64,000 bases of DNA from Candidatus Omnitrophota bacterium (GTDB taxonomy: Bacteria; Omnitrophota; Gorgyraeia; Gygaellales; Profunditerraquicolaceae): NCBI GenBank assembly GCA_041308845.1, contig JBFZAT010000002.1, forward strand, positions 566 through 64,565. The letters are read 5' to 3'. The notes below the pieces were generated by a model. The model ran no database searches and was not told where the DNA came from. It saw nothing but the letters and a program-made list of their open reading frames with translations. Numbering within the stretch: position 1 is the stretch's first letter; each line of letters opens with the position of its first letter. Position numbers and translations under genes: made by a program. This document shows positions 37,507 through 58,865 of the stretch, one piece after another.

Positions 37507-38766
37507 ATGCACGATTTTACATATAAAAATAATAAACTCTACTGTGAAAATGTTAAAGTAGAAGATTTAGCTAAAAGGTTCGCTACCCCGCTTTATATCT
37601 ATAGTTATCATACTTTAACTGACCACTATTTAAAGCTTAAATCTGCTTTTTCTGGAATCAAGCCATTGATTTGTTATTCGGTTAAAGCCAACTCCAATCT
37701 GTCTATATTAAAATCATTAGTGGATTTAGGGGCCGGCTTAGATATCGTCTCTGGAGGGGAGCTCTTCCGCGCTCAAACCGTTAATTGCCCGGCGGAAAGG
37801 ATTGTTTATGCTTCGGTCGGTAAAACCGATAAAGAGATTACCGCGGCGATTACTGCTGGGATATTATTTTTTAATGTTGAATCTTTGGCTGAACTTGAGA
37901 ATATTAACCGGATTGCTAAGGGGCTAAATAAAACTACGCGTGTGGCGATCCGGATTAACCCGGATGTTGAAGCTAAAACGCATAAATATATTACTACTGG
38001 TAAACTGACCAATAAGTTCGGGATTGACTTAAAGAGCGCCGCTAAAATTTTATTACTGCGGAATAAATTCCGTAATTTGAATATTTGTGGCTTACATATT
38101 CATATCGGTTCTCAGATTACCCAGAGCGCTCCGTTTGTGGAGGCGGTGAAAAAGGTTTCTAATTTTATCCAGCGCTTAAAAGCTAAGGGTATTTTACTAG
38201 AGTATCTGAATATCGGAGGAGGATTGGGGATTATTTATGATCAGGAGATGCCTCAAACCGCTCAAATTTACGCCGGACAAATTATCCCGCTTTTAAAAAA
38301 GACTGGGCTTAAAATAATTATGGAGCCTGGGCGATTCATTGTAGGCAATGCCGGGATACTGGTAGCAAAGGTGCTTTATATTAAAAATACTCCAAAGAAG
38401 AAATTTATTATTGTAGACGCCGGGATGAATGATTTGGTTCGTCCGGCTTTATATTCGGCTTATCATAATATTTGTCCATTATCTAAAATCTCAAAAAAAG
38501 AAAAAGCTGATTTAGTGGGGCCGATCTGTGAAAGCGGCGATTTCTTAGCTAAAGAGCGTTTATTGGCTAGAGTTCAGGAAGGGGATTATCTGGCGGTGAT
38601 GAGCGCGGGGGCTTACGGTTTTAGTATGTCTAGTAACTATAATTCCCGCTTGCGCCCCGCAGAGATTATGGTTAAAGAAAATAAAGTATTAGTGATTAGG
38701 AAAAGAGATACGCATCTGGATCTGGTACGCAATGAAGTACTGGCGAGCAATCTCAATAAGCCATAA
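37507..38766 (+). CDS. lysA: diaminopimelate decarboxylase
   Basis: Fold-III PLP decarboxylase: YSVKAN (PLP Lys) and EPGR motifs and the C-terminal CESGD. Confidence 0.9.
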   Translation: MHDFTYKNNKLYCENVKVEDLAKRFATPLYIYSYHTLTDHYLKLKSAFSGIKPLICYSVKANSNLSILKSLVDLGAGLDIVSGGELFRAQTVNCPAERIVYASVGKTDKEITAAITAGILFFNVESLAELENINRIAKGLNKTTRVAIRINPDVEAKTHKYITTGKLTNKFGIDLKSAAKILLLRNKFRNLNICGLHIHIGSQITQSAPFVEAVKKVSNFIQRLKAKGILLEYLNIGGGLGIIYDQEMPQTAQIYAGQIIPLLKKTGLKIIMEPGRFIVGNAGILVAKVLYIKNTPKKKFIIVDAGMNDLVRPALYSAYHNICPLSKISKKEKADLVGPICESGDFLAKERLLARVQEGDYLAVMSAGAYGFSMSSNYNSRLRPAEIMVKENKVLVIRKRDTHLDLVRNEVLASNLNKP

Positions 38767-39552
38767 ATGAAAAAAATTAAATTCACTAAAATGGTAGGCA
38801 GTGGCAATGATTTTATAGTGATTTCCGGCAGGCCGTCTGGCAACTTGTCGAAATTAGCCAGAACTTTATGCGATCGGAAATTCGCCATCGGAGCTGACGG
38901 TTTACTTATATTGGAAAAATGCCGGAATGCGGATTTAAGAATGCGGATATTCAATGCCGATGGTTCGGAGGCAGAGATGTGCGGTAATGGAGCCCGTTGC
39001 GCGGCTTTTTTCCACGGCCGGCCTCAAACCACTTTGTTGACGGATGCCGGAGTTATTAATGCGCAAGTCGATGGTATGCGGGTAAAGATCCAGCTTACCG
39101 CTCCCCGGCAGATAAAGCTGGACCTTCCTTTAAAATTAAGCGACAGATTACTCAAAGTAAATTTTATTAATACCGGTGTGCCGCATGTGGTAGTTTTTGT
39201 CAGTGGGATCGAGAAGATTGATGTAAAGCATTTAGGCCGGTTGATCAGAAACCATGTGAGATTCGCGCCTTCTGGCACAAACGTTAATTTTGTGGAAGAA
39301 AAAGGTAAAGATTTTATCCAGATCCGCACCTATGAAAGAGGAGTTGAAGATGAAACCTTAGCTTGTGGAACCGGAAGTACCGCGGCGGCTTTGATTTTGG
39401 CTTTAAAAAATAACTCCGAAAATTTAATTAAGGTTAAAACACAAAGCGGTGAGATTCTTAAAGTATATTTTTATAAGGTGGCAGGCGATTTTAAGAAGGT
39501 TTGGCTAGAAGGCAGCGTTAGAATCGTTTACAAAGGAGAATACTATGTTTAA
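38767..39552 (+). CDS. dapF: diaminopimelate epimerase
   Basis: FTKMVGSGNDF N-terminal signature, with the catalytic Cys in MCGNGARC and the second in LACGTGS. Confidence 0.85.
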   Translation: MKKIKFTKMVGSGNDFIVISGRPSGNLSKLARTLCDRKFAIGADGLLILEKCRNADLRMRIFNADGSEAEMCGNGARCAAFFHGRPQTTLLTDAGVINAQVDGMRVKIQLTAPRQIKLDLPLKLSDRLLKVNFINTGVPHVVVFVSGIEKIDVKHLGRLIRNHVRFAPSGTNVNFVEEKGKDFIQIRTYERGVEDETLACGTGSTAAALILALKNNSENLIKVKTQSGEILKVYFYKVAGDFKKVWLEGSVRIVYKGEYYV

Positions 39553-40423
39553 GGGCTCGATTGTGGCCATCGTTACGCCTTTTAAAAATGGGAAAATTGA
39601 TGAAAAAAAATTACGGGATTTAGTCGATTTTCAGATTACTCAGGGGTCCAGCGGTATTGTCCCCTGCGGAACAACCGGAGAATCAGCGACTCTAAATTTT
39701 GAAGAACATGAAACGGTAATTCGGATTACCATTGAGCAGGTAAATAAACGGGTTTCGGTAATTGCCGGGACCGGTTCTAATTCTACTCAAGAAGCAATTA
39801 TGCTTACTCAGAAGGCCGCATCCGCCGGAGCAGATGCTTCTTTGCAAGTTTCCCCTTATTATAACCGGCCAACGCAAAAAGGTTTATACGAGCATTTTAA
39901 AGCGATTGCTCAATCAGTTAAAATTCCGATTATCTTGTATAATATTGCCGGACGTACCGGGGTGAATATCGAGCCGGAGACCATAGCTAGGTTAGCCAGG
40001 GATTGCAAGAATATCGTTGCCGTAAAAGAAGCTTCAGGAAGTTTGGACCAGATGTCCCGGATAAAACAACTTTGCCCGCAAGAATTCGGTTTGATTTCCG
40101 GAGATGACGCTTTGACCTTGCCGGTACTGAGTATCGGCGGTACTGGGATAATTTCGGTTGTAGCTAATATTGTACCTGCGGATATGGCGGATTTAGTTTC
40201 CGCTTTCGCTCAAGGTAATTTTAAGCGGGCTCAAGCATTACATTATAAATTGTTGCCTTTAATTAAAGCGGTATTCCTGGAAACTAATCCGATTCCGGTT
40301 AAAACCGCAATGGGTTTGTTGGGGATGTGCGAACCAGATTTACGTTTACCAATGTGCAGTATGGCTGATGACAATTTAGCCAAGCTTAGAACGGCTCTAA
40401 AAGATTACGGTTTACTGAAATAA
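39545..40423 (+). CDS. dapA: 4-hydroxy-tetrahydrodipicolinate synthase
   Basis: VAIVTPF, GTTGES and active-site Lys (VAVKEASG) motifs. Confidence 0.9.
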   Translation: MFKGSIVAIVTPFKNGKIDEKKLRDLVDFQITQGSSGIVPCGTTGESATLNFEEHETVIRITIEQVNKRVSVIAGTGSNSTQEAIMLTQKAASAGADASLQVSPYYNRPTQKGLYEHFKAIAQSVKIPIILYNIAGRTGVNIEPETIARLARDCKNIVAVKEASGSLDQMSRIKQLCPQEFGLISGDDALTLPVLSIGGTGIISVVANIVPADMADLVSAFAQGNFKRAQALHYKLLPLIKAVFLETNPIPVKTAMGLLGMCEPDLRLPMCSMADDNLAKLRTALKDYGLLK

Positions 40424-40449
40424 TTTTTATTAAAAGTTAGAGGAGAATA

Positions 40450-41166
40450 TTGATGATTAAAATCGGCATTACCGGTGCTTGCGGCAGAATGGGCCGGCGC
40501 ATTTATGAGCTGGCCAGTGCGGATAAGGATTTAGAAGTAGCCCTGGCTTTAGAAAAAAAAGGCACTCCTTTGATTGGTAAAGATTTAGGGAAGATCAAAG
40601 TTTCTTCCAATCTTGACGGATTATTTTTAATTGATGTATTGGTGGATTTTACTTTGCCGGAAGCGGTGGATGCGCACCTGGATTATGTGGCTAAATATAA
40701 AAAAGCCTATGTTTTAGGGACCACCGGGCTAAGTCTGGAGCAGAAAAATAAAATCGAAGAGATAGCTAAAATTGTCCCGGTAGTTTTTAGCCCGAATATG
40801 TCCATTGGGGTAAACGTTTTATTTTCAATGCTACCGGAGATGGCTAAAAGATTAGGGTCGGATTATAGCGTAGAGATCGTCGAGGCACATCATACAGCTA
40901 AGAAAGATGCCCCCAGCGGAACGGCAAAGAAATTAGCGGAAGTGATTAAACAGGTAACTAGTAAAGATATACCGACGCATTCGATCCGGTTAGGTGATAT
41001 TTTTGGTGATCACCAAATAGTTTTCTGCGGAAATTCCGAAAGGATCGAGATTAAGCATCAGGCGCATTCGCGCGATCTATTTGTAGTCGGGGCATTAAAG
41101 GCTGTTAAATGGATCATTGGCAAGCCAGCCGGTCTTTATTCAATGCAGGATGTGCTAAAGCAGTAG
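40450..41166 (+). CDS. dapB: 4-hydroxy-tetrahydrodipicolinate reductase
   Basis: IGITGACGRMGRR NAD(P)-binding motif and EAHHTAKKDAPSGTA catalytic region. Confidence 0.85.
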   Translation: MMIKIGITGACGRMGRRIYELASADKDLEVALALEKKGTPLIGKDLGKIKVSSNLDGLFLIDVLVDFTLPEAVDAHLDYVAKYKKAYVLGTTGLSLEQKNKIEEIAKIVPVVFSPNMSIGVNVLFSMLPEMAKRLGSDYSVEIVEAHHTAKKDAPSGTAKKLAEVIKQVTSKDIPTHSIRLGDIFGDHQIVFCGNSERIEIKHQAHSRDLFVVGALKAVKWIIGKPAGLYSMQDVLKQ

Positions 41167-41205
41167 GCTGAAAATAAGAAAAACGAAAAGGGGTCCAGTA
41201 AAAAT

Positions 41206-42366
41206 ATGTTTAAACTGTCTAAAAAAGTTCAAGCATTGCCACCGTACTTATTCCTGGAAATTGACCAGGCTAAACGTAAAGCCCGCGCCGCAGGCCGGGA
41301 TATTATTGATTTAGGCATTGGAGATCCGGACCAGCCTACACCCAAATTTATTATTGATGCTCTAAACCAGGCCGCCCTGGATCCGGCTAATCACCGTTAC
41401 GCTTTAGACCAGGGGATGCCGGTGTTGCGCAGCGCTGTTGCGGATTGGTATAAAAGCAGGTTTAAGGTCAGTTTAAATCCGGAGAATGAGATTTTACCTT
41501 TAATCGGTTCCAAAGAGGGGATTGCGCATTTTCCGTTAGCTTTCTTAGATCCTGGGGATATGTCTTTGGTTCCTGATCCGTGTTATCCGCCTTACAAGGG
41601 AGGGACAATCTTAGCCGGCGGCAAACCTTATCTTATGCCTTTATTAGCTAGTAATGATTTTTTGCCGGATTTAAAAAAAATTCCATTATCGGTAGCTAAA
41701 GCAGCTAAAATCATTTTTGTTAATTATCCAAATAATCCGACCAGTGCTTGTGCTAGCAATGATTTTTATACCGAATTAATTGAATTTGCGACAAAAAATA
41801 GGATTATTATTATTTCGGACCTGGCTTATTCGGAAATGGCTTACGATGGATATCGGCCGCGCAGCCTTTTGGAATTTCCCGGGGCAAGCGCAGTGGCCAT
41901 CGAATTTCATTCTTTATCCAAGACCTATAATATGACTGGTTGGAGAGTAGGTTGGGCTTGCGGTAATGCGCAATTGGTGGCGGCGTTAGCTAAAGTTAAA
42001 AGCAATATTGATTCGGGTATTTTTTCGGCAATTCAACTGGCTGCCGTGGCTGCCTTAAAGGGTAATCAGGATTACTTAAAAGAAATGTGCTCGCTTTATC
42101 AACAAAGGCGGGATGTTTTGGTAGATGGCTTGAAATGTTTAGGTTGGGAGGCGCTTAGGCCCAAGGCGACATTTTACGTCTGGATAAAAACTCCTCCTAA
42201 AACCGACGCCATCAGTTTTGCAGCGCAGCTTTTAAAAGAAGCTGATATTGTGGCTACTCCCGGAGTAGGTTTTGGCCGCTATGGCCAGGGTTATATCCGG
42301 ATGGCCTTGACTGTTTCTGATGATAGAATTAAAGAGGTTCTAAGACGTATTAAAAAATTTTCCTAA
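41206..42366 (+). CDS. dapL: class I PLP aminotransferase, probably LL-diaminopimelate aminotransferase (DapL)
   Basis: Fold-type I aminotransferase (SLSKTYNMTGWRVG with PLP Lys). Sits among dapF/A/B/lysA, and no dapD/dapC/dapE is visible, which fits the DapL route. Confidence 0.6.
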   Translation: MFKLSKKVQALPPYLFLEIDQAKRKARAAGRDIIDLGIGDPDQPTPKFIIDALNQAALDPANHRYALDQGMPVLRSAVADWYKSRFKVSLNPENEILPLIGSKEGIAHFPLAFLDPGDMSLVPDPCYPPYKGGTILAGGKPYLMPLLASNDFLPDLKKIPLSVAKAAKIIFVNYPNNPTSACASNDFYTELIEFATKNRIIIISDLAYSEMAYDGYRPRSLLEFPGASAVAIEFHSLSKTYNMTGWRVGWACGNAQLVAALAKVKSNIDSGIFSAIQLAAVAALKGNQDYLKEMCSLYQQRRDVLVDGLKCLGWEALRPKATFYVWIKTPPKTDAISFAAQLLKEADIVATPGVGFGRYGQGYIRMALTVSDDRIKEVLRRIKKFS

Positions 42367-42767
42367 TGGTTATTGTTTACCTGGGCGTGGGCTCGAATTT
42401 AGGCAATCGCAGAAAGAATATAAAATTGGCAGTCAAATCAATTGAGGCTTTAAAAGACACTAGAATTATTAAACAATCCAGATTAATCGAAACCTTGCCT
42501 TGCGGCGGACCTTCCGGTCAGCCTCTTTATTTGAATGCCGCCTTAAAAATCAGTACGAATTTTTCTCCTCTAAAATTATTGAAAAATTTAAAAAAAATCG
42601 AAAAAGACTTGGGTCGGGTTCCGGCCGCTCGCTATGGTGCGCGGGTTATTGATTTAGATATTTTACTTTATGCAACCCGGCGGATATGCAGCCGGATTCT
42701 GACTATCCCACATCCGCGGATGTTTGACCGGGATTTTGTAATCCAGCCATTAATCGAGGTTTTATGA
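42366..42767 (+). CDS. folK: 2-amino-4-hydroxy-6-hydroxymethyldihydropteridine diphosphokinase
   Basis: VYLGVGSNLGNR ... IDLDILLY ... HPRM motifs of HPPK. Confidence 0.8.
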   Translation: MVIVYLGVGSNLGNRRKNIKLAVKSIEALKDTRIIKQSRLIETLPCGGPSGQPLYLNAALKISTNFSPLKLLKNLKKIEKDLGRVPAARYGARVIDLDILLYATRRICSRILTIPHPRMFDRDFVIQPLIEVL

Positions 42768-43612
42768 GAGTTATCCGTATTCCGCAGCAGATTAGCAAAT
42801 TACTTAAAAGACAAAAAAATAAAGGTAGGCGGATTGGTTTGGTGCCTACGATGGGTGCATTGCATTTAGGACATTTAAGTTTAATTAAACAGGCCAAGCA
42901 AGATAATGATCTGGTAGTTGTAAGCATATTTGTGAATCCGGTTCAGTTCGGCCCCCGCGAAGATTTACGCCGCTATCCTCGCCCACTGGCAGATGACCTC
43001 TTACTTTGCCGTAAACACAAGGTAGATTTGGTTTTTTTGCCTGATCATAAAAACATGTATCCGGAAGGTTTTTCTACCTTTGTCAGTGTGGAAGGGTTAA
43101 GCCAATTACTTTGCGGAGCCACCCGCCCGGGACATTTTCGAGGAGTAGCTACTGTGATTGCTAAACTGCTGAATATTATCGGACCAGAATTTATTTATTT
43201 GGGCCAGAAAGATGCGCAGCAGGCAGTGATATTAGCTAGAATGATTAAAGATCTGAATTTTCCGGTTCAGGTTAAAGTTCTGCCAATTGTACGCCAGAAA
43301 GACGGGTTAGCTTTAAGTTCACGTAATCTTTATTTAACTCAAAGCCAGAGAGTACAGGCACAAGTTTTATATAAAGCTTTAGGTCTGGCCCGGTCTTTGA
43401 TTAAACATGGCCAAGCCGATGCTGTCAGGGTTATCAGTAGGATCAAAGAGTTAATTGCCAGGCACAAACAGATAAAGATCGATTATGTAGCGATTGTTGA
43501 TTTAGATAAACTTCAGCCGATTCTCAAGATAAAACAGGATTGCCTGGTTTGTTTAGCGGTTGAAATTGGTAAAACCCGGTTGATTGATAATATGGTGGTA
43601 ACCTGTGGTTAA
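42764..43612 (+). CDS. panC: pantoate--beta-alanine ligase
   Basis: VPTMGALHLGHLSL (HIGH-type) motif; 282 aa. Confidence 0.9.
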   Translation: MRVIRIPQQISKLLKRQKNKGRRIGLVPTMGALHLGHLSLIKQAKQDNDLVVVSIFVNPVQFGPREDLRRYPRPLADDLLLCRKHKVDLVFLPDHKNMYPEGFSTFVSVEGLSQLLCGATRPGHFRGVATVIAKLLNIIGPEFIYLGQKDAQQAVILARMIKDLNFPVQVKVLPIVRQKDGLALSSRNLYLTQSQRVQAQVLYKALGLARSLIKHGQADAVRVISRIKELIARHKQIKIDYVAIVDLDKLQPILKIKQDCLVCLAVEIGKTRLIDNMVVTCG

Positions 43613-44432
43613 AAACAAAAAACTAAAAATTGGGATTGTCGGATGCGGGGCGATTGGCAGTTCATTGGCTAAAGAAATTGCTTTAAATTTCAGTAACAAC
43701 TCTGTTCTTTCTGCGTTCTTTGATATTAAGCCGGCTAAAAGTCTATTACTTGCTCAGAAAATAAACAAAAGTAAAAGATTATGCGTAGATAATTTAGATG
43801 CCCTAATTAAAGCATCAGATCTGGTTATTGAAGCATCGTCTGCTCGTGCTTCCTGGGAGATTACTGCTAAAGCATTGATTTACGGCCGTAGAGTGATGGT
43901 GATGAGTGTAGGTGGGATGGTTGGCCACCTGGACCAGCTTTTTGATTTAGCTCTCAAACATAAGGCGCAGGTTTATTTCCCCAGTGGGGCCATTTGTGGT
44001 ATTGATGGTTTAAAGGCAGCTGGTATTGCTGGAGTGCGCAGAGTAGTCTTAACTACACGTAAACATCCTAAGGCTTTCAGCGGTGTGGAATATGTAACGC
44101 AAAGATTCAAATTAACCGGTTTAAAAAAAGATAAACTTCTTTTTAATGGCACAGCGGCGCAGGCGGTAAAATATTTTCCGCAGAATATTAATGTCGCTGC
44201 AGTGTTAGGATTGGCTGGTATCGGTATGCATAAAACTAAAGTGCGTATAATTGCCAGCCCCATGGTTAGTAAAAATATCCATGAAGTTTTGATTGAATCC
44301 AAAGCGGCGAAGATTTTTACCCGGACTGAAAATATTCTGCATCCGCAGAACCCCAAGACTTCGTATTTGGCGGTTCTATCGGCGGTGGCGACTTTAAGGC
44401 AAATTTTACAACCGGTAAAAATCGGCACCTAG
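43605..44432 (+). CDS. nadX: L-aspartate dehydrogenase
   Basis: IGIVGCGAIG Rossmann motif plus FPSGAI.G.DGL and NPKTS..AVLSA blocks closely resembling Thermotoga NadX. Confidence 0.75.
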   Translation: MVKNKKLKIGIVGCGAIGSSLAKEIALNFSNNSVLSAFFDIKPAKSLLLAQKINKSKRLCVDNLDALIKASDLVIEASSARASWEITAKALIYGRRVMVMSVGGMVGHLDQLFDLALKHKAQVYFPSGAICGIDGLKAAGIAGVRRVVLTTRKHPKAFSGVEYVTQRFKLTGLKKDKLLFNGTAAQAVKYFPQNINVAAVLGLAGIGMHKTKVRIIASPMVSKNIHEVLIESKAAKIFTRTENILHPQNPKTSYLAVLSAVATLRQILQPVKIGT

Positions 44433-44446
44433 ATTAATTTTCCTGC

Positions 44447-44473
44447 CGTATTCTTACATTCAGTAAGAATACG
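44447..44473. promoter_or_regulatory. perfect 11-bp inverted repeat (CGTATTCTTAC-5-GTAAGAATACG), candidate operator or processing hairpin
   Basis: Exact palindrome arms at 44447-44457 and 44463-44473 in the nadX/small-protein intergenic region, upstream of the radical-SAM operon; no U-tract follows. Confidence 0.35.
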
Positions 44474-44555
44474 ATCGGCGGGATTAATTCGGCCAACAGC
44501 TTAATAATTTTATCTTTAAGTTGTGGCCACATTCAGAAAGGGGGTGAGTACAAAG

Positions 44556-44795
44556 ATGGCAGATAAAGTGGTGAAGTTGGGAGTTAAAAGAGAAAAGGGG
44601 TACCTCTATTACATTGACAAGCAGGGCGATGTTTCTTGCGCAAAAATGGCTAGAGGTGCGAAAAAAGGGGGTAGCCCCAAAAAGGTAGCCAAGTGTGGCA
44701 TTAAAAGAAAAGTCGGATACCTTTATTTCTTGGATAAGAAGGGTGATGTTTCCTGCGCCAAGATGAAAAGAGGCGGTAAGAAGAAAAAGAAATAA
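44556..44795 (+). CDS. small highly basic protein built of two tandem ~35-aa repeats (function unknown)
   Basis: Strong RBS (aagggggtga) 8 nt before ATG 44556. Repeat units KLGVKREKGYLYYIDKQGDVSCAKMARGAKKGG and KCGIKRKVGYLYFLDKKGDVSCAKMKRGGKKKK. About 30% Lys/Arg. Confidence 0.5.
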   Translation: MADKVVKLGVKREKGYLYYIDKQGDVSCAKMARGAKKGGSPKKVAKCGIKRKVGYLYFLDKKGDVSCAKMKRGGKKKKK

Positions 44796-44883
44796 GTAAT
44801 ATATATCGACATAGCCCCGCGCTTATTTATTTTTTAAGGTGGGGCTATGTCCGTATATACTCACTTTAACCCGTATTTATCCT

Positions 44884-46344
44884 ATGATCCTCATAAATCC
44901 AAAAACCACTAAATTGGGAATATTTACTAGATACGTCCCATTAAGTGTTCCTATCGGAGTAGGCGCTTTAGCCGGCTATCTTTTACATAAGAATAGAAGC
45001 GTAGAAGTAATCGATGAGCAGATTGAACCATTATCTAAGCCGTTGTTAGAAAATTTGCTTAAGCGCTTAAGCCAGCCCTATATTTTCGGGATATCGGTTT
45101 TGACCGCATCCGCGCAAAGAAGCTATGATCTAGCGGGAATGCTTAAAGACTGGTATCCGGATTCCCGGGTGATTCTGGGTGGAATACACCCCAGTGTGTT
45201 GCCCCAGGAGGCTTTAGAGAAAGAAACGGTTGATTTTGTAATCAGAGGAGAAGGCGAACAGCCACTTCTAGAATTATACGATGCGCTTAAACAACAGAGG
45301 GATTATCGTCAAATTAAAAATTTATCTTATCGGGTTAATGGCAAGATAATCCATAACCCCCTGGCGGAATTTCCTGACTTAAAAGATTTGGGCACGTTTC
45401 CTTACCATTTATTCGAAAAGAATATCGGAAAATATAATTTCGGTTTCATTGCCAGCTCCAGAGGCTGCCCATATGATTGTATATTTTGCAGCCAGCGGAT
45501 TATTTCCGGCAGGAAATTCCGTTATTTTCCAGATGAAGTCGTGATACAAGAGCTGGATCTTTTAATTAATCAATACCGGCAAACCCATATTAATTTTGTA
45601 GACGATAATTTTACAGCGAATAAATCCCGGGTGGCCCGTTTATGTGAACAAATCATTAAAAAAGGTTTTCCGGAGAAAACGAGTTTTGATTTTCAGACCC
45701 GCGCGGATGCGGTAGACGACGCAATATTGGAGTTATTAAAAAGAGCGGGGTTCCGTCTGGTTAACTACGGCTTAGAAACTGCTTCTGAACGGTTGATGTT
45801 GTTATTAAATAAAAAAGAAACGGTCGCCGATAATATTGCGGCGGTTAAGCTGGCTCAAAAACATGGTTTTGGTGTATCGGGCACTTTTATTTTTGGCTTG
45901 CCCACGGAAACCCGGCAAGACCGTTGGCAGGCCTATGCGCTGGCTAAACGCTTGGATTTAGATTATGTGCGGTTTAATAACGCTACTCCTTATCCGGGAA
46001 CTAAGCTTTATGAGTTGGCTCAAGAAGAGGGTAGACTTTTTATCGAAGAGGGCTGGAGTAATCTTAATGCCTGCGCTTCTTTAGTCCAAGATTCACTGAC
46101 TGAATCAAAATTGCCTTATCTTCCCTTGGGGTGCGTGGAAGAAGAATTAAAAAAAGATATTATTAAAGCTAATTTATTTTTTTCGCTTCGGCCGCATAGA
46201 GTTTTTAGATTACTGGCTAAACGCATAGGGCCAGCCGGTTGGTTTTATTTGCCGGCGCGTTGGTATTTTAGCCTCAAAGAATGGCGCTGCCTTTTTAAAT
46301 TAGGATTCAGTTTGGTTAAGTCATTGATTAAGTTATATCTATGA
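44884..46344 (+). CDS. B12-binding domain radical SAM enzyme (class B), #1
   Basis: N-terminal cobalamin-binding-like domain (MILINP..., GGIHPS) followed by the radical SAM core SSRGCPYDCIFC (CxxxCxxC). The GTG at 44839 is an alternative start. Confidence 0.8.
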   Translation: MILINPKTTKLGIFTRYVPLSVPIGVGALAGYLLHKNRSVEVIDEQIEPLSKPLLENLLKRLSQPYIFGISVLTASAQRSYDLAGMLKDWYPDSRVILGGIHPSVLPQEALEKETVDFVIRGEGEQPLLELYDALKQQRDYRQIKNLSYRVNGKIIHNPLAEFPDLKDLGTFPYHLFEKNIGKYNFGFIASSRGCPYDCIFCSQRIISGRKFRYFPDEVVIQELDLLINQYRQTHINFVDDNFTANKSRVARLCEQIIKKGFPEKTSFDFQTRADAVDDAILELLKRAGFRLVNYGLETASERLMLLLNKKETVADNIAAVKLAQKHGFGVSGTFIFGLPTETRQDRWQAYALAKRLDLDYVRFNNATPYPGTKLYELAQEEGRLFIEEGWSNLNACASLVQDSLTESKLPYLPLGCVEEELKKDIIKANLFFSLRPHRVFRLLAKRIGPAGWFYLPARWYFSLKEWRCLFKLGFSLVKSLIKLYL

Positions 46345-48617
46345 AAATTAATAAGAAATTTATCGAAATCTTAAGCGTTATTGCCGTGATCTTTGCAGTA
46401 ATTGTCTTACAGCGGGACATTTGGATCACCGGAAAACGCATGTTTACCGCCGACAGTATTATCTGGTTTGGTGTTTTTGCTTATTTTTCTGATTGTTTAC
46501 AGCAATGGGTTTTGCCTCTCTGGAATCCTTATATGAACTGTGGAGAGGTGTTTTTTTTAAATATCGATGTTCTGCATTTATGGGATCCGGGCACACTGTT
46601 TTTAGTTTTTGCGGGCAAGTTTCTTAAAATTGACACCTTAACTATTTATCATTTTGATTTATTGCTACGCTATTTAATCTTTATTTTAGGCGGATATCTA
46701 TTCTTCAGGCGGCTGGCTAAATATAAAATTAGCGCACTAGTCGCTTTTATAAGTTTAGCGTTTTCGTCCCTGGCTAGTATGTACTTGAAACAACACGGTG
46801 TAATTCTTTGTTTCTACCTTTTACCCTGGATACTACTATGCATCTTTAAACTTTTTGAAACAGAGGATCCAGCTGCTTTAATCGGGTTAGCTTTTTTAGG
46901 GGGAGTTACATTTTATACCGGATATCATGCCATGTATTTAGTTTCATCGGTAGGAACACTTCTGGCGTGTATTTTTTTAACAAAATGGGCTTTATTGCCA
47001 AAACTCTGCAGAATATTAAAACACCGTGTTTGGGTAAGTTTATCGATTTTATTTTTTTTATTAATAGTGGTTAACTTGATTCCGGTTTATCTAAAATACA
47101 ATAGCAGCACAGTCCCTACGGTGCGAATGTTTGAGTGCCCCGGGCCGGCAAATTCTTATTTTTCTGATTTTTTTACTTTGTTGGCTCCGCATTCTTTTTG
47201 GCTGCACTTAATAATTCTATTTTTTGATTCAACCAACCCGATGTCAGAAGTATTTCTTTATGTTGGATTAGTGCCGATTTTCTTGGCGATTGTTGGTTTA
47301 CTTTATTCTCGGCAGAGATATAAGGTTGGTTTTACACTGGCCCTTGGTTTAACTGCGTTATTAATGCTGGGTCCTAACTTTCTTGCTGTCCCGTTATTTT
47401 CTTTACTCATTCCTTATTTTTCGATCATTAGAAACACCCATATCTTCGGCACTTTCTTTATTTTCTGTCTGACTTATTTTGTCTGCCTTGGCCTAGATTA
47501 CTTAATGGAGTTGGCAGAGAGTTCCGCCCTCAGCCGGCATCGAAACCGGTTTATTTTAATTGCGGCGTTGATTGCTTCGGCTGCTTTATTTATTGCGAAT
47601 TATATACTTAAGATTTATGCGATGGGATTACAGTTATCTTCCGATAAATACCAAAGTATATCGGCCGCGATCGGGCAGGATTTAAGCCACATGCTCAGAG
47701 GGGGTCTGTCGAAGTCCTATCACCATATTTGGTTATTTATTATTGCCATATCGGTTATTCTTTATCTGCTGGAAAAGCCTAAAATAAGCTTGAAGATAAA
47801 ATATTTTACGTTAATTGCATTTATTTTAGTCGATTTAGTCCTGTTTAATCAGGCACTATATGATGGGATAACTTCTGGTCCAAGAGTAGATATGTCCAAC
47901 TGGGCCAAAGAAAGTACTGCCTATAGTGATTATCGGGCACCGGTAATGCAGCCTAAATGGCCGTTTTTCGGTTTTGCCCCGGCGCTGCTTAGGAAGTTTA
48001 CGGCTGAAAGTACAAGGATTCCATCTGTAACTACGCATTTTTATGAAATGAAGGATTATTTTAGATTTGTTAATGATGACCAAATTGATGTTTTGGCAAA
48101 GAACGTTTTTATGGGGGTATCTCAGCCGAGGCTTAAGCTGATTAATGCCGGAGTGGTAATGCCGGCGGTACTGCAGGCAGGGGAATTTAAAAAAATAAGC
48201 CAGCCAGCTTTAAATTGTGCGATTTTTATCGAGGAAGAATTACCGGAGAAGTTTCAGAAGTTAAAAATAAGTGTCGAAGAAATTAATCAAGCACGCATTG
48301 TGCAGGGGCAGATTAATGTCCTTAGCTTTGATCCAAACAGCCTCTTATTAGAAGTTGATTCCCCAGAGGATAGTTTTCTCTATTATAGCGATGTATTCGA
48401 TAAAGACTGGAGGGTTTTTATCGACGGGAAGGAAAATAAGGTTTACCGGACTAACTTGGCTTTTAAATCTGTGCTTGTGGAAAAAGGCAGTCACCGGGTG
48501 AGCTGGGTGTACGATCCGGTATTATATAAAATTACATTATATTGTTATTTCGCCGGAATCTTTCTGGCGGTTATCGGGTTTATTTATATATTGTTAAAAC
48601 GCAGAAAAAGACGTTAA
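46341..48617 (+). CDS. large polytopic membrane protein with a YfhO-like C-terminal region (putative envelope glycosyl/lipid transferase)
   Basis: 758 aa with more than 12 TM segments and a soluble C-terminal domain ending with a YfhO-like beta-rich segment (NKVYRTNLAFKSVLVEKGSHRVSWVYDP). ATGA overlap with rSAM #1. Confidence 0.45.
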   Translation: MKINKKFIEILSVIAVIFAVIVLQRDIWITGKRMFTADSIIWFGVFAYFSDCLQQWVLPLWNPYMNCGEVFFLNIDVLHLWDPGTLFLVFAGKFLKIDTLTIYHFDLLLRYLIFILGGYLFFRRLAKYKISALVAFISLAFSSLASMYLKQHGVILCFYLLPWILLCIFKLFETEDPAALIGLAFLGGVTFYTGYHAMYLVSSVGTLLACIFLTKWALLPKLCRILKHRVWVSLSILFFLLIVVNLIPVYLKYNSSTVPTVRMFECPGPANSYFSDFFTLLAPHSFWLHLIILFFDSTNPMSEVFLYVGLVPIFLAIVGLLYSRQRYKVGFTLALGLTALLMLGPNFLAVPLFSLLIPYFSIIRNTHIFGTFFIFCLTYFVCLGLDYLMELAESSALSRHRNRFILIAALIASAALFIANYILKIYAMGLQLSSDKYQSISAAIGQDLSHMLRGGLSKSYHHIWLFIIAISVILYLLEKPKISLKIKYFTLIAFILVDLVLFNQALYDGITSGPRVDMSNWAKESTAYSDYRAPVMQPKWPFFGFAPALLRKFTAESTRIPSVTTHFYEMKDYFRFVNDDQIDVLAKNVFMGVSQPRLKLINAGVVMPAVLQAGEFKKISQPALNCAIFIEEELPEKFQKLKISVEEINQARIVQGQINVLSFDPNSLLLEVDSPEDSFLYYSDVFDKDWRVFIDGKENKVYRTNLAFKSVLVEKGSHRVSWVYDPVLYKITLYCYFAGIFLAVIGFIYILLKRRKRR

Positions 48618-48639
48618 TGATTATTTTACAAGACGTTCG

Positions 48640-50055
48640 ATGAAAATTTGTTTTGTTCAGAAACAAATCTTTCCCTATTTCGGGGTTATGGCGGTTTCCG
48701 CACAGTTAAAGCAATGCGGCCATCAAACCGATATCTTGATTGATGTTTGTGAAAAAGATATCGTCAGGTCATTGCGCCAAGTCCGTCCGGATTTAATCGG
48801 TTTTTCTGTTTTGTCTTCAGAACACGTTTGGTTAGAACGATTAACGTTTGAGTTGAAAAAGTACATGCCTGCAGTTCCTATTGTCGTAGGCGGCGTACAC
48901 GCGATTCTGTATCCGGATGATGTTTTAGCTTTATCCGGAGTAGATTACGTTTGCCGGGGTGAAGGGGAATCTGCTTTTATCCAGTTAACGGATTGTCTTA
49001 CTGCGGGCAAATCACCAAAAAATATCCTTGGTATTAGCTATAAAGATCAGGGTAGGCTCATGCAGCAAGGCATTGCACCATTAACCCAGCAACTAGATGG
49101 GTTTTTCGAAGACCGGCACTTATATTATGAGAGATACCCTAAATTAGGCAAATTAGCACTAAAGGTTTTTATGTCTTCGCGCGGGTGTCCGTATCTTTGT
49201 TCATTTTGCGCTAATAGTCAGATCATGCGGCTTTATCAGGCAAACGGAAATTATGTTCGGAGAAAGTCTCCGCAACATTTTATCGAAGAAATTAAGCGCG
49301 TAGTTGAAGCATACCCCACTAATTCGCTGTTTTTTGCCGATGATCTTTTTGCCCTGGATTTGGGTTGGCTGGAAGAATTCTGCTTTTTGTACAAGCAAAA
49401 AATTAAGCTGCCTTATATTTGTACAGCCCGGATTGATATGATTAAGGAAAAGCACGGACGTTTTCTGGCTGAATCCGGTTGCCACACTGTAAGTTTCGGA
49501 GTCGAGACTGGTAATCAGTTTTTGCGCCAAGTAATTCTCAAGAAAAATATAAGTAACGAGCAGATCTTTGAAAGTGTTGGTATTATTAAAAAAGCCGGGA
49601 TTAAGGTGCAAACTTCAAATATGTTTTGTTTGCCTGATGAAACCGTGGATGATGCGGTTGCTACGCTAAATTTGAATATTGCCATCGGGACAAGCTATAT
49701 GTTTACCACAGTATTTTTGCCTTTTCCTAAAACCGAATTAGCTCAATATTGCATTAACCGGGGTCTACTTAAAGAGAATTACTCTTTTGTGGACATGCCT
49801 AATTCTTTTATTCAGGATTCGGTCTTGCGCTTAGAGCATAAAGATGTTTTATTAAATATCCATAAGATTGCACATCTGTGCGTGCGGTTTCCGCTATTAA
49901 AGCCTTGCCTGATCATGCTGGCTAAAAAAATCAAATTTAAACAGTTGTTTCTGTTTTTTTGGCTAATTGGTACTTTTATCAGGTTTAAAGAAGAACGGCA
50001 ACTGAGCTTGAGCAAGACCATGCGTTATCTTTGGGAGTATCGATGGGGATTGTAA
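48640..50055 (+). CDS. B12-binding domain radical SAM enzyme (class B), #2
   Basis: N-terminal B12-like domain (MKICFVQ..., VGGVHA) followed by SSRGCPYLCSFC. Confidence 0.8.
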   Translation: MKICFVQKQIFPYFGVMAVSAQLKQCGHQTDILIDVCEKDIVRSLRQVRPDLIGFSVLSSEHVWLERLTFELKKYMPAVPIVVGGVHAILYPDDVLALSGVDYVCRGEGESAFIQLTDCLTAGKSPKNILGISYKDQGRLMQQGIAPLTQQLDGFFEDRHLYYERYPKLGKLALKVFMSSRGCPYLCSFCANSQIMRLYQANGNYVRRKSPQHFIEEIKRVVEAYPTNSLFFADDLFALDLGWLEEFCFLYKQKIKLPYICTARIDMIKEKHGRFLAESGCHTVSFGVETGNQFLRQVILKKNISNEQIFESVGIIKKAGIKVQTSNMFCLPDETVDDAVATLNLNIAIGTSYMFTTVFLPFPKTELAQYCINRGLLKENYSFVDMPNSFIQDSVLRLEHKDVLLNIHKIAHLCVRFPLLKPCLIMLAKKIKFKQLFLFFWLIGTFIRFKEERQLSLSKTMRYLWEYRWGL

Positions 50056-51959
50056 AGCAGGCCGCTACTCTGGCCAATAGAGATTTGGATATACTAATGC
50101 AGAAACTAGAGGGGTTTTGCCAGAAATTCGCGCAGCGTTTGCTCTGGGCTTTTATTTCTGTTTACATTCTTATTTTTAGCGGATTATCTTTTTTAAAATA
50201 CCAGTCTTTTAGTTATTATGATTGGGACCTGGCTAGCGATGCAATTGTGTTGTGGAATAGTTTACACGGCGAGTTTTTGTATTATCCTTTTTTGGAACAA
50301 TCCATTTTAGGAGCGCACCTGTATTTAATTTCCATTTTTATTTTGCCCATTTATGCTTTATTTCAAAGCCCATTGACACTTTTATTTTTACAAAGCATAT
50401 TTTTAGGCCTGGGGGCATCTCCCTTATATCTTTTAGCTAGATGTAAGTTGAATGCAACCTTTGCTTTAGCTGTGGTAGTGGTTTATTTATTATACCCTTC
50501 TTTAGGTTTTATTAATTTGTTCGAATCACACTTTGAGATTTATGAAATATTCCTGCTTTTTTTTGCTTTATATTACTTCGAAAAAGAAAAATTTAAAAAA
50601 TTTTTGATCTTTGCCTTGCTGGCTTTGTTTTGCAAAGAGAATGCCAGCCTGGCCGTGTTTGGCTTGGGCATTTATGCTGGTTTCCGTAGGCGTTCTCAAA
50701 AATGGATTTGGACTCCGTTATTAATCGCAGGGGGCTGGTTTATATTATCTTTGAAAGTGATTATTCCGTATTTTGCTAAAGACGCTGTTTTTTACCAGGG
50801 TGGTTTTATGTTCAGTTCTTATTATAAGCATCTGGGGTCTAATTTAGGGGAGATGGTTAAAACAGTCTTTTTGCATCCCCAAACTACGCTGAACTTAGCC
50901 TTTGAGCCCAGAAAATTAATTTATCTTTGCCAACTCTTTTTACCGATTGGGTTTTTAGGGTTATTCAGCCCGTTATCTTTGGTCCCGGCAGTTTTGGTTT
51001 TTGGGCAAAATCTATTATCGGCAGTGCCTACACACGCTTCCATTCGTTATCAGTACGTTGCTTTATTAATCCCCTTTATATTTCTTTCGCTTATCCAGGC
51101 TTTAAACCGGATTTTACGCTGGAAATTAGTTTTTAAGCTGAAAGGAATATTATTGCTTGCTTTGTTCGGATTTGTGACTTCAGCCGGCTTATATTTAGAA
51201 GCTCCACAATTCAACCTGGTCGGACATATTTTTGAGTATTGGCCTAAAGATGAAGCACGAGAAAAAGAAAGATTAATTGCCGCAATACCGAAAAATGCCT
51301 CCGTACTGGCGACTTTTCAGTTTTTGCCTAAATTAGCCAATCGCATCCATCTTTATTCCTTGCATCTTATTGCGGTTGGATACAGGATGTATACTAGTAT
51401 TCGCTACCAGCCTCCTGAGAATCTGGAGTATGCTTTAATCGATTTTAATGAACCGCTGTTGGTTTCCGTTTTTTTGCCCCCGCCGGCTTTAAAAAATATT
51501 CGTACTTTCCTGGAAGCAGATGATTGGAATGTTTACCAGGCTTATAATGATGTGGTTTTATTCAAAAAAGGGTATCCGGATGGACATCGGCTTTGTGAAA
51601 TTATCCAGCATCCTGTTATTAGCCATCCGTTAAACTTTAATTTAGATCAACAAATTGTTTTCTTAGGATATGATATTAATGATAGTATGCTTCAGGAGCG
51701 TTTATTGCATCTTATCTATTATTGGCAAAAAATAAGCAGCCAGCGCCGACCACTAGGATTTTTTATTCAGTTCAGGGATGTCCGCGGTAAGGTTAAGTTT
51801 CAGGCTGAGCATGTTTTCGGCTACCGAGTTTACTTAGGTGAGGAGTGGAGGCCAGGTCAAATTGTTAAGGAACATCATTATATATTAGTGCCCAAGGGTT
51901 TCAAGGCAACTGATTACCAGCTTGAGTTTGGACCGTTTATATTTGAACCTGAATTTTAA
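50043..51959 (+). CDS. polytopic integral membrane protein (GT-C-like; resembles DUF2079 family)
   Basis: About 12 TM segments followed by a ~200-aa soluble C-terminal domain; start overlaps the rSAM #2 stop. Confidence 0.35.
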   Translation: MGIVKQAATLANRDLDILMQKLEGFCQKFAQRLLWAFISVYILIFSGLSFLKYQSFSYYDWDLASDAIVLWNSLHGEFLYYPFLEQSILGAHLYLISIFILPIYALFQSPLTLLFLQSIFLGLGASPLYLLARCKLNATFALAVVVVYLLYPSLGFINLFESHFEIYEIFLLFFALYYFEKEKFKKFLIFALLALFCKENASLAVFGLGIYAGFRRRSQKWIWTPLLIAGGWFILSLKVIIPYFAKDAVFYQGGFMFSSYYKHLGSNLGEMVKTVFLHPQTTLNLAFEPRKLIYLCQLFLPIGFLGLFSPLSLVPAVLVFGQNLLSAVPTHASIRYQYVALLIPFIFLSLIQALNRILRWKLVFKLKGILLLALFGFVTSAGLYLEAPQFNLVGHIFEYWPKDEAREKERLIAAIPKNASVLATFQFLPKLANRIHLYSLHLIAVGYRMYTSIRYQPPENLEYALIDFNEPLLVSVFLPPPALKNIRTFLEADDWNVYQAYNDVVLFKKGYPDGHRLCEIIQHPVISHPLNFNLDQQIVFLGYDINDSMLQERLLHLIYYWQKISSQRRPLGFFIQFRDVRGKVKFQAEHVFGYRVYLGEEWRPGQIVKEHHYILVPKGFKATDYQLEFGPFIFEPEF

Positions 51960-51975
51960 CTTATGGAGCATATGT

Positions 51976-52935
51976 ATGCCGAATAAAATATTAATTATTA
52001 AACTAGGTTACTCGGAAACTTTGGACCAGGAGATCAGCACGACTACCAGTTTAGGGGATGTTTTGCGAACCACCGTGATATTAAATTATTTCAAGAAAGA
52101 TGAAATTACCTGGTTAGTTGATGAGAAGGCTCATCTCTTGCTGGAGGGTAATCCTTTTATAAAACGGATTGTAGTTTTTAGCCAGAAAACGATATTACAA
52201 TTACAGCGTGAACGTTTTGATATAATAATTAACCTAGAGAAGGGGCCGGGTATTTGCGAATTTTCTGATTCGGTAAAAGCTAAAAAAAGATTTGGTTTTT
52301 GGTTTGATCCTAAGAAAGGTTCGGCTCAGGCTTATGACGGAGCGGAACTAGTTTTGAGTTTATGTTTGGACCGGCAGAAGAAAAAAAGAAGCATAAGATT
52401 CTGGCAGGATGCGTTATCTTCCATGATTGCAAAAAAATGGTCGCCCCGGAAAGAATATATACTCGGTTACCGGCCGTCCTCAAAAGTTAAGTATGATATA
52501 GGTTTTAATTGGGTAGTCGGTGATAAATGGCCGAATAAGGCCTGGCCTAAAAAGAATTGGAAAAAGCTCGAAAAACTGTTAAAAAAACAATATAATATTA
52601 GTTGGCAGAGGGGGTTGGGTGATCTCGCAGAATACATGGATTGGATAAATTCCTGTCGATTGATTGTTACCAATGACAGTCTAGGTATGCATTTGGCCAT
52701 TGCTTTAAAGAAAAAGCTAATTGTTCTTTTCGGGCCCAGCTCTTCTAAAGAAGTTTATCTTTACGGCCGGGGGGTAAAACTGGTAGGGAAAGTGCCTTAT
52801 AAATGCTTGCCTTGTCTTAGTCCGGTTTGCATACAACCGGTTAGCTGTATGGAATATATTACTCCTGAGCAAGTTCAAGCGCAAATTATCAGATCTATCC
52901 CCCAGCAGAGGAAATATAATGGAAGATATTTTTAG
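51976..52935 (+). CDS. glycosyltransferase family 9 (heptosyltransferase-like)
   Basis: ILIIKLG...LGD N-terminus and LIVTNDSLGMHLAIALKKKLIVLFGPS, the GT9 C-terminal signature. Confidence 0.7.
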   Translation: MPNKILIIKLGYSETLDQEISTTTSLGDVLRTTVILNYFKKDEITWLVDEKAHLLLEGNPFIKRIVVFSQKTILQLQRERFDIIINLEKGPGICEFSDSVKAKKRFGFWFDPKKGSAQAYDGAELVLSLCLDRQKKKRSIRFWQDALSSMIAKKWSPRKEYILGYRPSSKVKYDIGFNWVVGDKWPNKAWPKKNWKKLEKLLKKQYNISWQRGLGDLAEYMDWINSCRLIVTNDSLGMHLAIALKKKLIVLFGPSSSKEVYLYGRGVKLVGKVPYKCLPCLSPVCIQPVSCMEYITPEQVQAQIIRSIPQQRKYNGRYF

Positions 52936-53983
52936 AATCGATAGTCATAAATTGATGTTTCACATAGATAGAGTTAATGCTTGGTTGCATGGTAAGCAGA
53001 TTTTCCCGTTATATTTAGAGATCGCTCCTTCTGGTAGCTGTAATCATCGGTGTATCTTTTGTGCGGTTGATTATTTAGGGTATGCCCCTTGTTTTCTGGA
53101 TTTGAATTTGCTTAAGAATACGGTAAGTCAAGCAGCAAATTTGGGGGTTAAGAGTATAATGTATGCTGGAGAAGGAGAGCCGCTGTTGCATCCGGATATT
53201 TGCCAGATTGTAAAGCATACTAAAAGCTGCGGGATAGATGTGGCGATCACGACCAATGGTACATTGCTGAATAAAGATTTAGCGCAAAAAATATTGAAAT
53301 ATTTAAGCTGGATTAGAATTAGTTTGAATGCCGGAACCAGCCGGACATATGCCCGTATCCATCGGACCGAAGAAAGAGATTTTTACCGGGCCTTAAAAAA
53401 TTTACAGCAGGCCGTCAGTCTCAAAAAGAAGCATCGGTTGACGGTCAGTATTGGAGTTCAGCTTTTACTTATCCCAGAAAACGTTAAAGAGGTAGTGGTC
53501 CTGGCTAAGAAATTAAAAAAAATAGGTCTTGATTATTTAACCGTTAAACCTTACTCCCAGCACCCTTTGAGTAATTCGCGCGTAGACCTTGGGTTTCAAT
53601 ATGATCATAATGCTATATATAATCAATTATCTCTGTTGGAAGACGATCGCTTTAAGGTCAGTTTCCGCTCTCAGACCATGGAGAGATTAGCCAGAACTAA
53701 AGACTATAAACGGTGTTTAGCTACTCCTTTTTGGTCTTATATTGATGCCCAGGGGCAGGTGTATGCCTGCAGCGCATTTTTAGGCAAGAAAGAGTTTAGC
53801 TTCGGGAATATTAATCAAAATAGCTTTAAAAAGATTATGGTTAGCAGGCGTCGCCGGTCCGTGATCAATAGGATCAGTTCGAAGATCAATGTCAATAAGT
53901 GCCGGCCGGTCTGCCGTTTAGACAAGATCAATAGCTATCTTTGGGAATTACATAATCCTCAACCGCATGTTAATTTTATCTAG
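52919..53983 (+). CDS. radical SAM enzyme with SPASM/twitch-like C-terminal Cys cluster, #3
   Basis: SGSCNHRCIFC CxxxCxxC. Downstream GNINQNSFKKIM and CRPVC resemble the SPASM GN(I/L)xxxS(I/L)xx(I/L)W-plus-Cys pattern. Paralogue of 56803-57906. Confidence 0.7.
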   Translation: MEDIFRIDSHKLMFHIDRVNAWLHGKQIFPLYLEIAPSGSCNHRCIFCAVDYLGYAPCFLDLNLLKNTVSQAANLGVKSIMYAGEGEPLLHPDICQIVKHTKSCGIDVAITTNGTLLNKDLAQKILKYLSWIRISLNAGTSRTYARIHRTEERDFYRALKNLQQAVSLKKKHRLTVSIGVQLLLIPENVKEVVVLAKKLKKIGLDYLTVKPYSQHPLSNSRVDLGFQYDHNAIYNQLSLLEDDRFKVSFRSQTMERLARTKDYKRCLATPFWSYIDAQGQVYACSAFLGKKEFSFGNINQNSFKKIMVSRRRRSVINRISSKINVNKCRPVCRLDKINSYLWELHNPQPHVNFI

Positions 53984-53988
53984 AGGTT

Positions 53989-54975: not shown

Positions 54976-54978
54976 TTA

Positions 54979-56779: not shown

Positions 56780-56802
56780 AAATAAACTGCAGGGAGCTAG
56801 GT

Positions 56803-58382: not shown

Positions 58383-58384
58383 TT

Positions 58385-58861: not shown

Positions 58862-58865
58862 ACTG

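Follow-up and report, generated by a model that had tools for sequence, protein, structure and literature searches.

A strongly basic tandem-repeat protein encoded by the last gene of a lysine/aspartate operon of Omnitrophota, and its candidacy as a nucleic-acid-binding protein

The window, by which we mean the whole 64,000-nt stretch of Candidatus Omnitrophota DNA analysed here, carries one copy of a gene for a small, very basic protein with two repeats. The ORF at 44556–44795 is a genuine gene, and in Omnitrophota it is the 3'-terminal cistron of an upstream biosynthetic operon. The preliminary description of this DNA placed the gene at the head of a radical-SAM operon, and suggested that its product was a nucleic-acid-binding or ribosome-associated factor, the substrate of the downstream radical-SAM enzymes, or a regulator. 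We found no linkage of the gene to radical-SAM genes. The first of these suggestions is the best supported, our observations speak neither for nor against the third, and we infer, at roughly even odds (a probability of about 0.5), that the protein binds nucleic acid. The features discussed below are listed in Table 1.

Table 1. Positions in the window of the small gene, the parts of its product and the flanking features
Feature	Position (nt)	Strand	Basis and remarks
Aspartate dehydrogenase gene, aspDH (Asp_DH_C + NAD_binding_3)	43605–44432	+	Pfam
Two stem-loops in the spacer (44441–44483 and 44491–44528)	44441–44528	+	RNA fold
Shine-Dalgarno sequence GAAAGGGGGTGA	44536–44547	+	Read from the sequence; 8 nt before the ATG
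CDS of the 79-aa basic tandem-repeat protein (stop codon included)	44556–44795	+	Orthologues, dN/dS
Repeat 1 (residues 4–36)	44565–44663	+	Fold prediction and repeat alignment
C28, C47 and C67	44637–44639, 44694–44696, 44754–44756	+	Omnitrophota orthologues
SPKK, inter-repeat linker	44673–44684	+	Read from the sequence; orthologues
Repeat 2 (residues 43–75), then Lys tail KKKK	44682–44780	+	Fold prediction and repeat alignment
Long GC-cored hairpin after the small-gene stop (main stem 44800–44859)	44794–44866	+	RNA fold
Variable island (~15 kb)	44885–59717	+	Pfam; absent from most related loci
uvrA	59782–62583	+	Commonest direct downstream neighbour elsewhere; far edge of the island

The gene, its conservation and its place in an operon

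The product of the + strand ORF, MADKVVKLGVKREKGYLYYIDKQGDVSCAKMARGAKKGGSPKKVAKCGIKRKVGYLYFLDKKGDVSCAKMKRGGKKKKK, has 79 aa, a mass of 8.7 kDa, a pI of 10.2 and a net charge of +20, with 26 basic residues (22 Lys, which make up 28% of the protein, and 4 Arg) against 6 acidic ones, in agreement with its first description as extremely basic. The longest mechanical ORF ending at 44795 begins at a GTG codon at 44523, and the comparison of sequences supports the ATG at 44556 as the true start, because the orthologues begin with MA[DE]K and a conserved GAAAGGGGGTGA lies 8 nt upstream. The strong ribosome-binding site reported for this ORF was also borne out, the core of this Shine-Dalgarno sequence (GGGGGTGA/GGAGGTGA) being 80–90% conserved, at the same distance from the ATG, in 77 related loci. 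AAG accounted for 50% of the Lys codons in the small gene and for 32% of those in its neighbours, a signal too weak to be used.

A search of 5.8 billion proteins yielded 1,587 close homologues. The best 120 were 82–97% identical to the window protein, all the named ones coming from Candidatus Omnitrophota MAGs, and at least 429 species-representative genomes encode a relative. Selection was assessed on 600 sampled pairs from 76 orthologous loci that also contained an aspDH ORF. The median pairwise protein identity was 89% for the small protein versus 58% for aspDH. For the 159 pairs with unsaturated dS, on which dN and dN/dS were computed, dN/dS was 0.034 for the small gene versus 0.117 for the adjacent aspDH, and the dN of the small gene was 6.3-fold lower. 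The small gene is thus under extreme purifying selection. Its dS was also roughly one-half of the aspDH value, as one would expect if the gene is highly expressed, and this low dS and the strong Shine-Dalgarno sequence suggest that the protein is probably highly expressed and abundant.

The aspDH gene is the last enzyme gene of a lysA-dapF-dapA-dapB-aminotransferase-folK-panC-aspDH block (37507–44432). Elsewhere in the window, Rfam models identified the 3' end of a bacterial 23S rRNA (1–106) and a complete 5S rRNA (353–469). Gene order was compared by tblastn of the window proteins against the 80 best related Candidatus Omnitrophota loci. In all 80, aspDH was directly upstream of the small gene, and the order from lysA to aspDH was kept as far as each contig reached. 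The distance from the aspDH stop to the ATG of the small gene had a median of 46 nt; it was 29–36 nt in about 40% of the loci and 29–60 nt in most. A spacer of 29–36 nt has no room for a terminator and a promoter, and the small gene is therefore most simply the terminal cistron of the operon. The window carries a long-spacer variant (123 nt), and a promoter scan upstream of the small gene revealed no convincing sigma-70 promoter.

The two stem-loops in this spacer (−46 kcal/mol over 136 nt, z −5.1) are not conserved; comparable hairpins precede the Shine-Dalgarno sequence in some orthologous loci and none were found in the short-spacer ones. They probably serve to process or stabilise the mRNA or act as a weak terminator. 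On the other side of the gene, the 89-nt spacer before the first B12 radical-SAM gene of the window contains a long hairpin (−34 kcal/mol, z −6.8). Structure at this position is a general feature, as the 90 nt 3' of the small gene had a median z of −6 in 76 loci, with z below −2 in 95% of them, and several loci had A-run and T-run flanks at the hairpin, as in bidirectional intrinsic terminators. The hairpin looks like a terminator or a 3' stabiliser that parts the small gene from the radical-SAM genes. Rfam searches of both flanks yielded nothing real, with one generic hairpin scored as a miRNA model far below threshold.

The downstream island and the radical-SAM genes

The gene following the small gene differs between Omnitrophota genomes. 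Among 68 loci, it was uvrA in 25, a TPR/membrane protein gene in 13, another membrane protein gene in 9, a GT2, a DUF2079 or a B12 radical-SAM gene in 5 each (the last including the window) and a GT9 gene in 3. A radical-SAM gene was detected by tblastn within 6 kb downstream of the small gene in 8 of the 80 loci. As uvrA, the commonest next gene elsewhere, is found in the window at the position given in Table 1, the ~15 kb between the two genes is therefore a variable island. It contains two B12-binding radical SAMs, a YfhO-like protein, DUF2079, GT9, two SPASM radical SAMs, E1 alpha and beta (TPP), GT2, two small membrane proteins and one more radical SAM, and looks like a set for envelope or glycan modification chemistry rather than a peptide pathway. 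The first radical-SAM gene is likely to start at the ATG at 44885 (MILINP...) and not at the GTG at 44839, because its orthologues begin with MVLINP. That GTG, the mechanical start of the ORF, falls inside the hairpin 3' of the small gene.

The proposal that the small gene heads a radical-SAM operon is contradicted by the constant aspDH gene upstream, by the hairpin downstream, and by the scarcity of B12 radical SAMs directly after the small gene (5 of 68 loci). The same observations bear on the idea that its product is a RiPP precursor, or a substrate of the adjacent B12-binding and SPASM radical SAMs, with the Cys residues of the repeats as the modified sites. The small gene resembles those of sactipeptides, ranthipeptides and their relatives in being, in this window, a short Cys-containing ORF beside radical-SAM genes. 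A B12 radical-SAM gene adjoins it here and in four orthologous loci, three Cys are nearly invariant within Omnitrophota, and in Endomicrobiia a homologue lies 40 nt after a different, lysine-2,3-aminomutase-like radical SAM. However, 63 of the 68 Omnitrophota loci lack a B12 radical SAM as the next gene, yet these Cys are kept in almost all of the 77 orthologues; the strong hairpin, together with the short distance to aspDH in most loci, speaks against a shared transcription unit; and the Cys position is occupied by Arg in 71% of the family. Furthermore, conservation is uniform, the predicted fold is confident, there is no split into leader and core, no RRE/PqqD-like domain was found on the radical SAMs with Pfam, and the YfhO, DUF2079, GT9, GT2 and E1 genes of the island point to envelope glycan chemistry. 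Unlike radical-SAM/SPASM-modified peptides, the small gene is not co-conserved with such enzymes and is separated from them by a hairpin, its product is predicted to be folded, and Cys is not a feature of the family. We therefore consider this reading highly improbable and essentially refuted.

The preliminary description had suggested following the homologues, and they occur very widely without radical-SAM neighbours, no radical SAM being a constant neighbour in the other phyla. It had also named an annotated unrelated function as evidence against a substrate; on this point the homologues say nothing, as all are annotated as hypothetical. In genome annotation, the small gene should not serve as a marker of a radical-SAM peptide pathway.

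Repeats, predicted fold and the wider family

The tandem duplication into two ~35-aa units, as first described, was confirmed by the alignment of residues 4–29 with residues 43–68 (18 of 26 identical, 69%, E 5e-13), and the two-repeat architecture of the protein is real. Repeat 1 consists, in order, of strand 1, the loop GVKREKG, strand 2 (YLYYI), the turn DKQGD, strand 3 (VSCAK) and MARG, and the consensus repeat of the family is xKVxKxGIKRExGYLYFxDKxGDVSRxxMxRG. The linker between the repeats is S/N/G-P-K-K in nearly all Omnitrophota orthologues; we take its form in the window, SPKK, to resemble the SPKK minor-groove motif of histone H1.

Three Cys residues are almost fixed in the phylum: among 77 Omnitrophota orthologues, C28 was retained in 77, C67 in 76 and C47 in 72. 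C28 and C67 occupy the symmetric strand-3 position of both repeats and C47 is located in strand 1 of repeat 2. At the repeat Cys position, the family representatives have Arg (71%), Lys (8%) or Cys (8%); in the Omnitrophota members, Cys stands at two conserved Arg positions. These nearly invariant residues may form a lineage-specific metal or redox site.

AlphaFold2, run with a 51-sequence alignment (mean pLDDT 90, pTM 0.73), predicted an all-beta fold of 2 x 3 strands (residues 3–6, 16–20, 26–30, 42–45, 55–59 and 65–69) with no helix and an ordered linker. When one repeat was modelled alone, only the hairpin of strands 2 and 3 was obtained (pLDDT 74). The lone repeat being incompletely folded, the two repeats are interdependent and, since most members carry paired repeats, the pair is the structural unit. 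Foldseek searches with the predicted structure found no match in the PDB (best E 1.5, TM of 0.34 or less) and nothing among viral models.

The motif, which the preliminary description did not recognise, also went unrecognised in our searches. Nothing significant was obtained with Pfam-A and NCBIfam, either for the small protein (no match at E ≤ 1 and E ≤ 10, respectively) or for its distant homologues. In PHROGs there were just two matches, both below threshold and without an assigned function (E 0.035 and 0.057). The PDB was searched by sequence with the single protein and with two-repeat and single-repeat profiles, and only YWTD and choline-binding repeats came up, with marginal scores. The two-repeat profile reached sub-threshold E values of 0.016 (LRP6) and 0.64 (choline-binding protein) and the single-repeat profile 2.2; BaiB-type ligases matched the family marginally (E 0.01–0.1). 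The local motif G-[YW]-x-Y-[FY]-x-D-x-x-G is shared with the YWTD (LDL-receptor class B) blades, the choline-binding repeats and the A8 hairpin of acyl-CoA ligases, and these likenesses appear to be short motif resemblances, not homology. The weak acyl-CoA-ligase matches were accordingly rejected as the ANL A8 hairpin motif only, and the matches to GldM, DUF5050 and Big_2 as sub-threshold.

The window protein belongs to an Omnitrophota orthologue group of a large unnamed family that extends over bacteria and archaea. An exhaustive HMMER search of 1.84 billion cluster representatives (clusters at 50% identity) recovered 775 clusters at E ≤ 1e-3, and profile searches gave a family size of more than 7,000 proteins. 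The named sources were Omnitrophota, Elusimicrobiota/Endomicrobiia, Bdellovibrionota, a Deltaproteobacteria MAG and Cryomorphaceae and, among the archaea, Woesearchaeota, Nanoarchaeota/Nanoarchaeia and Thermoplasmatota. PF27482 (PF27482.1) is listed in the precomputed Pfam column of two homologues (P0282 and P0298), and the family may therefore already have a very recent Pfam entry of the DUF type. Neither the motif, nor PF27482, nor nucleoid proteins of Omnitrophota turned up in our literature search. An origin as a mobile-element protein was considered and rejected: the 50,697 deposited phage genomes contained no relative, and 2.9 million IMG/VR viral contigs yielded only seven (L175–L181), with 40–63% identity to an archaeal member.

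By a strict motif count, 91 of 150 representatives have two repeats and one has six; versions with four repeats also occur. The median pI of the family is 10.1, with values above 9.5 in 79% of the members, and many members add C-terminal tails of 15–60 residues rich in K/A/P or R/A/T. Members from high-GC genomes are Arg-rich, not Lys-rich. Fusions are rare and mixed, and include OmpA, DoxX, GAF with zinc ribbons, HEAT, SHOCT, an HNH endonuclease and HTH-like segments. In the membrane-anchored members (P0121, of 886 aa, P0160, P0214 and P0236), the repeat pairs lie on the predicted cytoplasmic side, with an OmpA domain, a DoxX domain or a large extracellular domain on the opposite side of the TM segment.

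Outside Omnitrophota, no dominant partner gene was found among 141 genes flanking the homologue in 80 metagenomic loci. The commonest were DNA methylase (6), DUF4901 (6), DUF1385 (5), Rce1-like (5), diphthamide synthesis (4) and HerA (4). In Nanoarchaeia, the homologue is located between a CDP-alcohol phosphatidyltransferase gene and Dus; it is preceded by an amino-acid permease gene in another nanoarchaeote and by GluRS in one further lineage; an Elusimicrobia MAG has it on its own, close to rpsF-ssb-rpsR-rplI. The lysine-2,3-aminomutase-like gene of Endomicrobiia (Radical_SAM + LAM_C; L089 3568–5240 and L090 1819–3491) is itself preceded by an HTH_17 gene. The family gene thus behaves as a free-standing housekeeping gene with neighbours specific to each lineage.

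Two more lysine-2,3-aminomutase-like neighbours were seen in the metagenome sample. Taken with the DAP operon of Omnitrophota, this gene represents a second "lysine" link of a Lys-rich protein, which may be a coincidence. We regard this link, like that of the neighbours to tRNA and translation, as a weak lead. In one alternative explanation, the protein would be a factor tied to the upstream aspartate/lysine operon, either a regulator or a Lys-rich sensor or sink through whose translation the supply of lysine is read out. The complete synteny with the lysA-dap...aspDH genes, with which it is probably co-transcribed, the Lys content of the protein and the Endomicrobiia neighbour are all in keeping with such a role. 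However, no link to lysine or aspartate genes was found outside Omnitrophota and Endomicrobiia, the high-GC members are rich in Arg and not in Lys, a dN/dS of 0.03 over the whole folded domain exceeds the needs of a role based on composition only, and a gene order shared within one phylum may reflect descent and not function. We consider this explanation very unlikely, although the invariant synteny with an amino-acid biosynthesis operon could reflect a metabolic or regulatory role instead of nucleic-acid binding.

Candidate ligands and function

Taken together, the small gene ends a conserved housekeeping operon of Omnitrophota (lysine/DAP, folK, panC and aspDH), with a ribosome-binding site close to the consensus before it and a hairpin resembling a terminator after it, and the radical-SAM and glycosyltransferase genes are a variable island that happens to be inserted downstream in this genome. 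The product, a probably highly expressed 8.7-kDa cytoplasmic protein, is predicted to fold its two 35-residue repeats into one compact, all-beta, pseudo-twofold domain carrying about a dozen conserved Lys and Arg residues and ending in a Lys tail. In the mechanism that we propose, the conserved basic face and the tail would bind a cytoplasmic polyanion, most likely nucleic acid, making it an abundant architectural protein, nucleoid-associated on DNA as our first choice or otherwise associated with RNA or the ribosome.

A polyanion, and nucleic acid in particular, is suggested as the target because of the H1-like tails, the SPKK linker, the few fusions to nuclease, zinc-ribbon and HTH segments, and the precedent of nucleoid-protein genes located as last cistrons. 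The cytoplasmic orientation of the repeats in the membrane-anchored members is also consistent with polyanion binding. In E. coli, the nucleoid proteins Fis and IHF-alpha are encoded by the last genes of housekeeping operons (dusB-fis and pheST-ihfA), and the small gene shares this layout with theirs, a precedent of gene arrangement that implies no homology. With histone H1 and the bacterial H1-like tails, the window protein shares the single SPKK of its linker, and many family members share the K/A/P- or R-rich tails; however, the core domain of the family is unrelated to the winged-helix globular domain of H1, and the tail of the window protein has just 4–5 Lys.

Sequence and fold searches produced no match of the small protein to a known DNA-binding, RNA-binding or ribosomal protein. 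Specifically, no Pfam family of HU/IHF, Fis, H-NS, Alba, the histone fold, Sso7d, Cren7 or MC1 was matched at E ≤ 1, nor was the cold-shock/OB-fold (CSD) model; none of these nucleoid proteins appeared among the PDB sequence-search matches of the single protein and the profiles, and none was matched by fold. Three further observations count against nucleic acid as the ligand: the fusion partners are heterogeneous (OmpA, DoxX, GAF, HEAT and SHOCT), few of them being related to nucleic acids; there is no consistent DNA- or translation-related neighbour outside Omnitrophota; and the exchange of Arg for Cys in Omnitrophota takes charge off the presumed binding face.

Another alternative is a protein binding some other cytoplasmic polyanion or partner, such as acidic phospholipid headgroups, polyphosphate or acidic proteins, with the three Omnitrophota Cys possibly adding a metal or redox site. 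The strong positive charge of the protein, the membrane-anchored members with their heterogeneous fusions, and the lineage-specific Cys at symmetric positions fit this alternative; the Cys are, however, absent from most of the family, and we rate it as quite unlikely.

If nucleic acid is the ligand, RNA or the ribosome has to be weighed against DNA. The basic beta domain might bind rRNA, tRNA or mRNA, as would an RNA chaperone, a ribosomal protein restricted to certain lineages, or a factor for ribosome hibernation or assembly. The size, the charge, the very low dN/dS and the reduced dS are like those of ribosomal proteins, the exposed-aromatic strand motif KGYLYYI presumably recalls RNP-type motifs, and frequent neighbours elsewhere include Dus, ThiI, TsaD/E, GluRS, AspRS, ProRS, diphthamide synthesis and GTPases. 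However, this neighbour signal may be background, given how common translation genes are in the small genomes sampled. No ribosomal protein family and no ribosome chain of the PDB was matched, and the patchy distribution, the variable tails and the forms with four or six repeats or a membrane anchor would be unusual for ribosomal proteins. An association with RNA or the ribosome thus appears unlikely, and the patchy distribution across both domains, the variation in tails, the existence of multi-repeat and membrane-tethered forms and the lack of a ribosomal match are the reasons why we prefer DNA, which as the specific ligand remains a tentative choice.

We propose the 7-kDa crenarchaeal chromatin proteins Sso7d/Sac7d and Cren7 as a possible functional model for the small protein. 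Like it, they are very small, Lys-rich, essentially all-beta, single-domain proteins highly conserved within a lineage. However, there is no sequence similarity between them and the small protein, their PDB entries were not matched by Foldseek, and their fold is an SH3-like barrel, whereas that predicted here is a tandem three-stranded pair. The small protein is probably another small basic architectural protein, with a fold and a sequence family linked to no known one. A bolder and rather doubtful extension of this proposal is that the family forms a class of chromatin or nucleoid proteins not recognised before, with an all-beta pseudo-dimeric fold that is new, and serving as a major DNA packager in several mostly ultra-small or host-dependent lineages (Omnitrophota, Elusimicrobiota, DPANN archaea and Bdellovibrionota), and that the Omnitrophota version gained a symmetric Cys pair conferring redox- or metal-sensitive DNA binding.

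Should the proposed role be correct, an unannotated, phylum-wide and very strongly constrained architectural protein would be common to almost entirely uncultivated bacteria and archaea. Both the packaging of genomes and gene expression at the global level are shaped by small, abundant proteins such as these, and the new classes recognised earlier (Sso7d, Cren7 and the bacterial histones) have each been informative.
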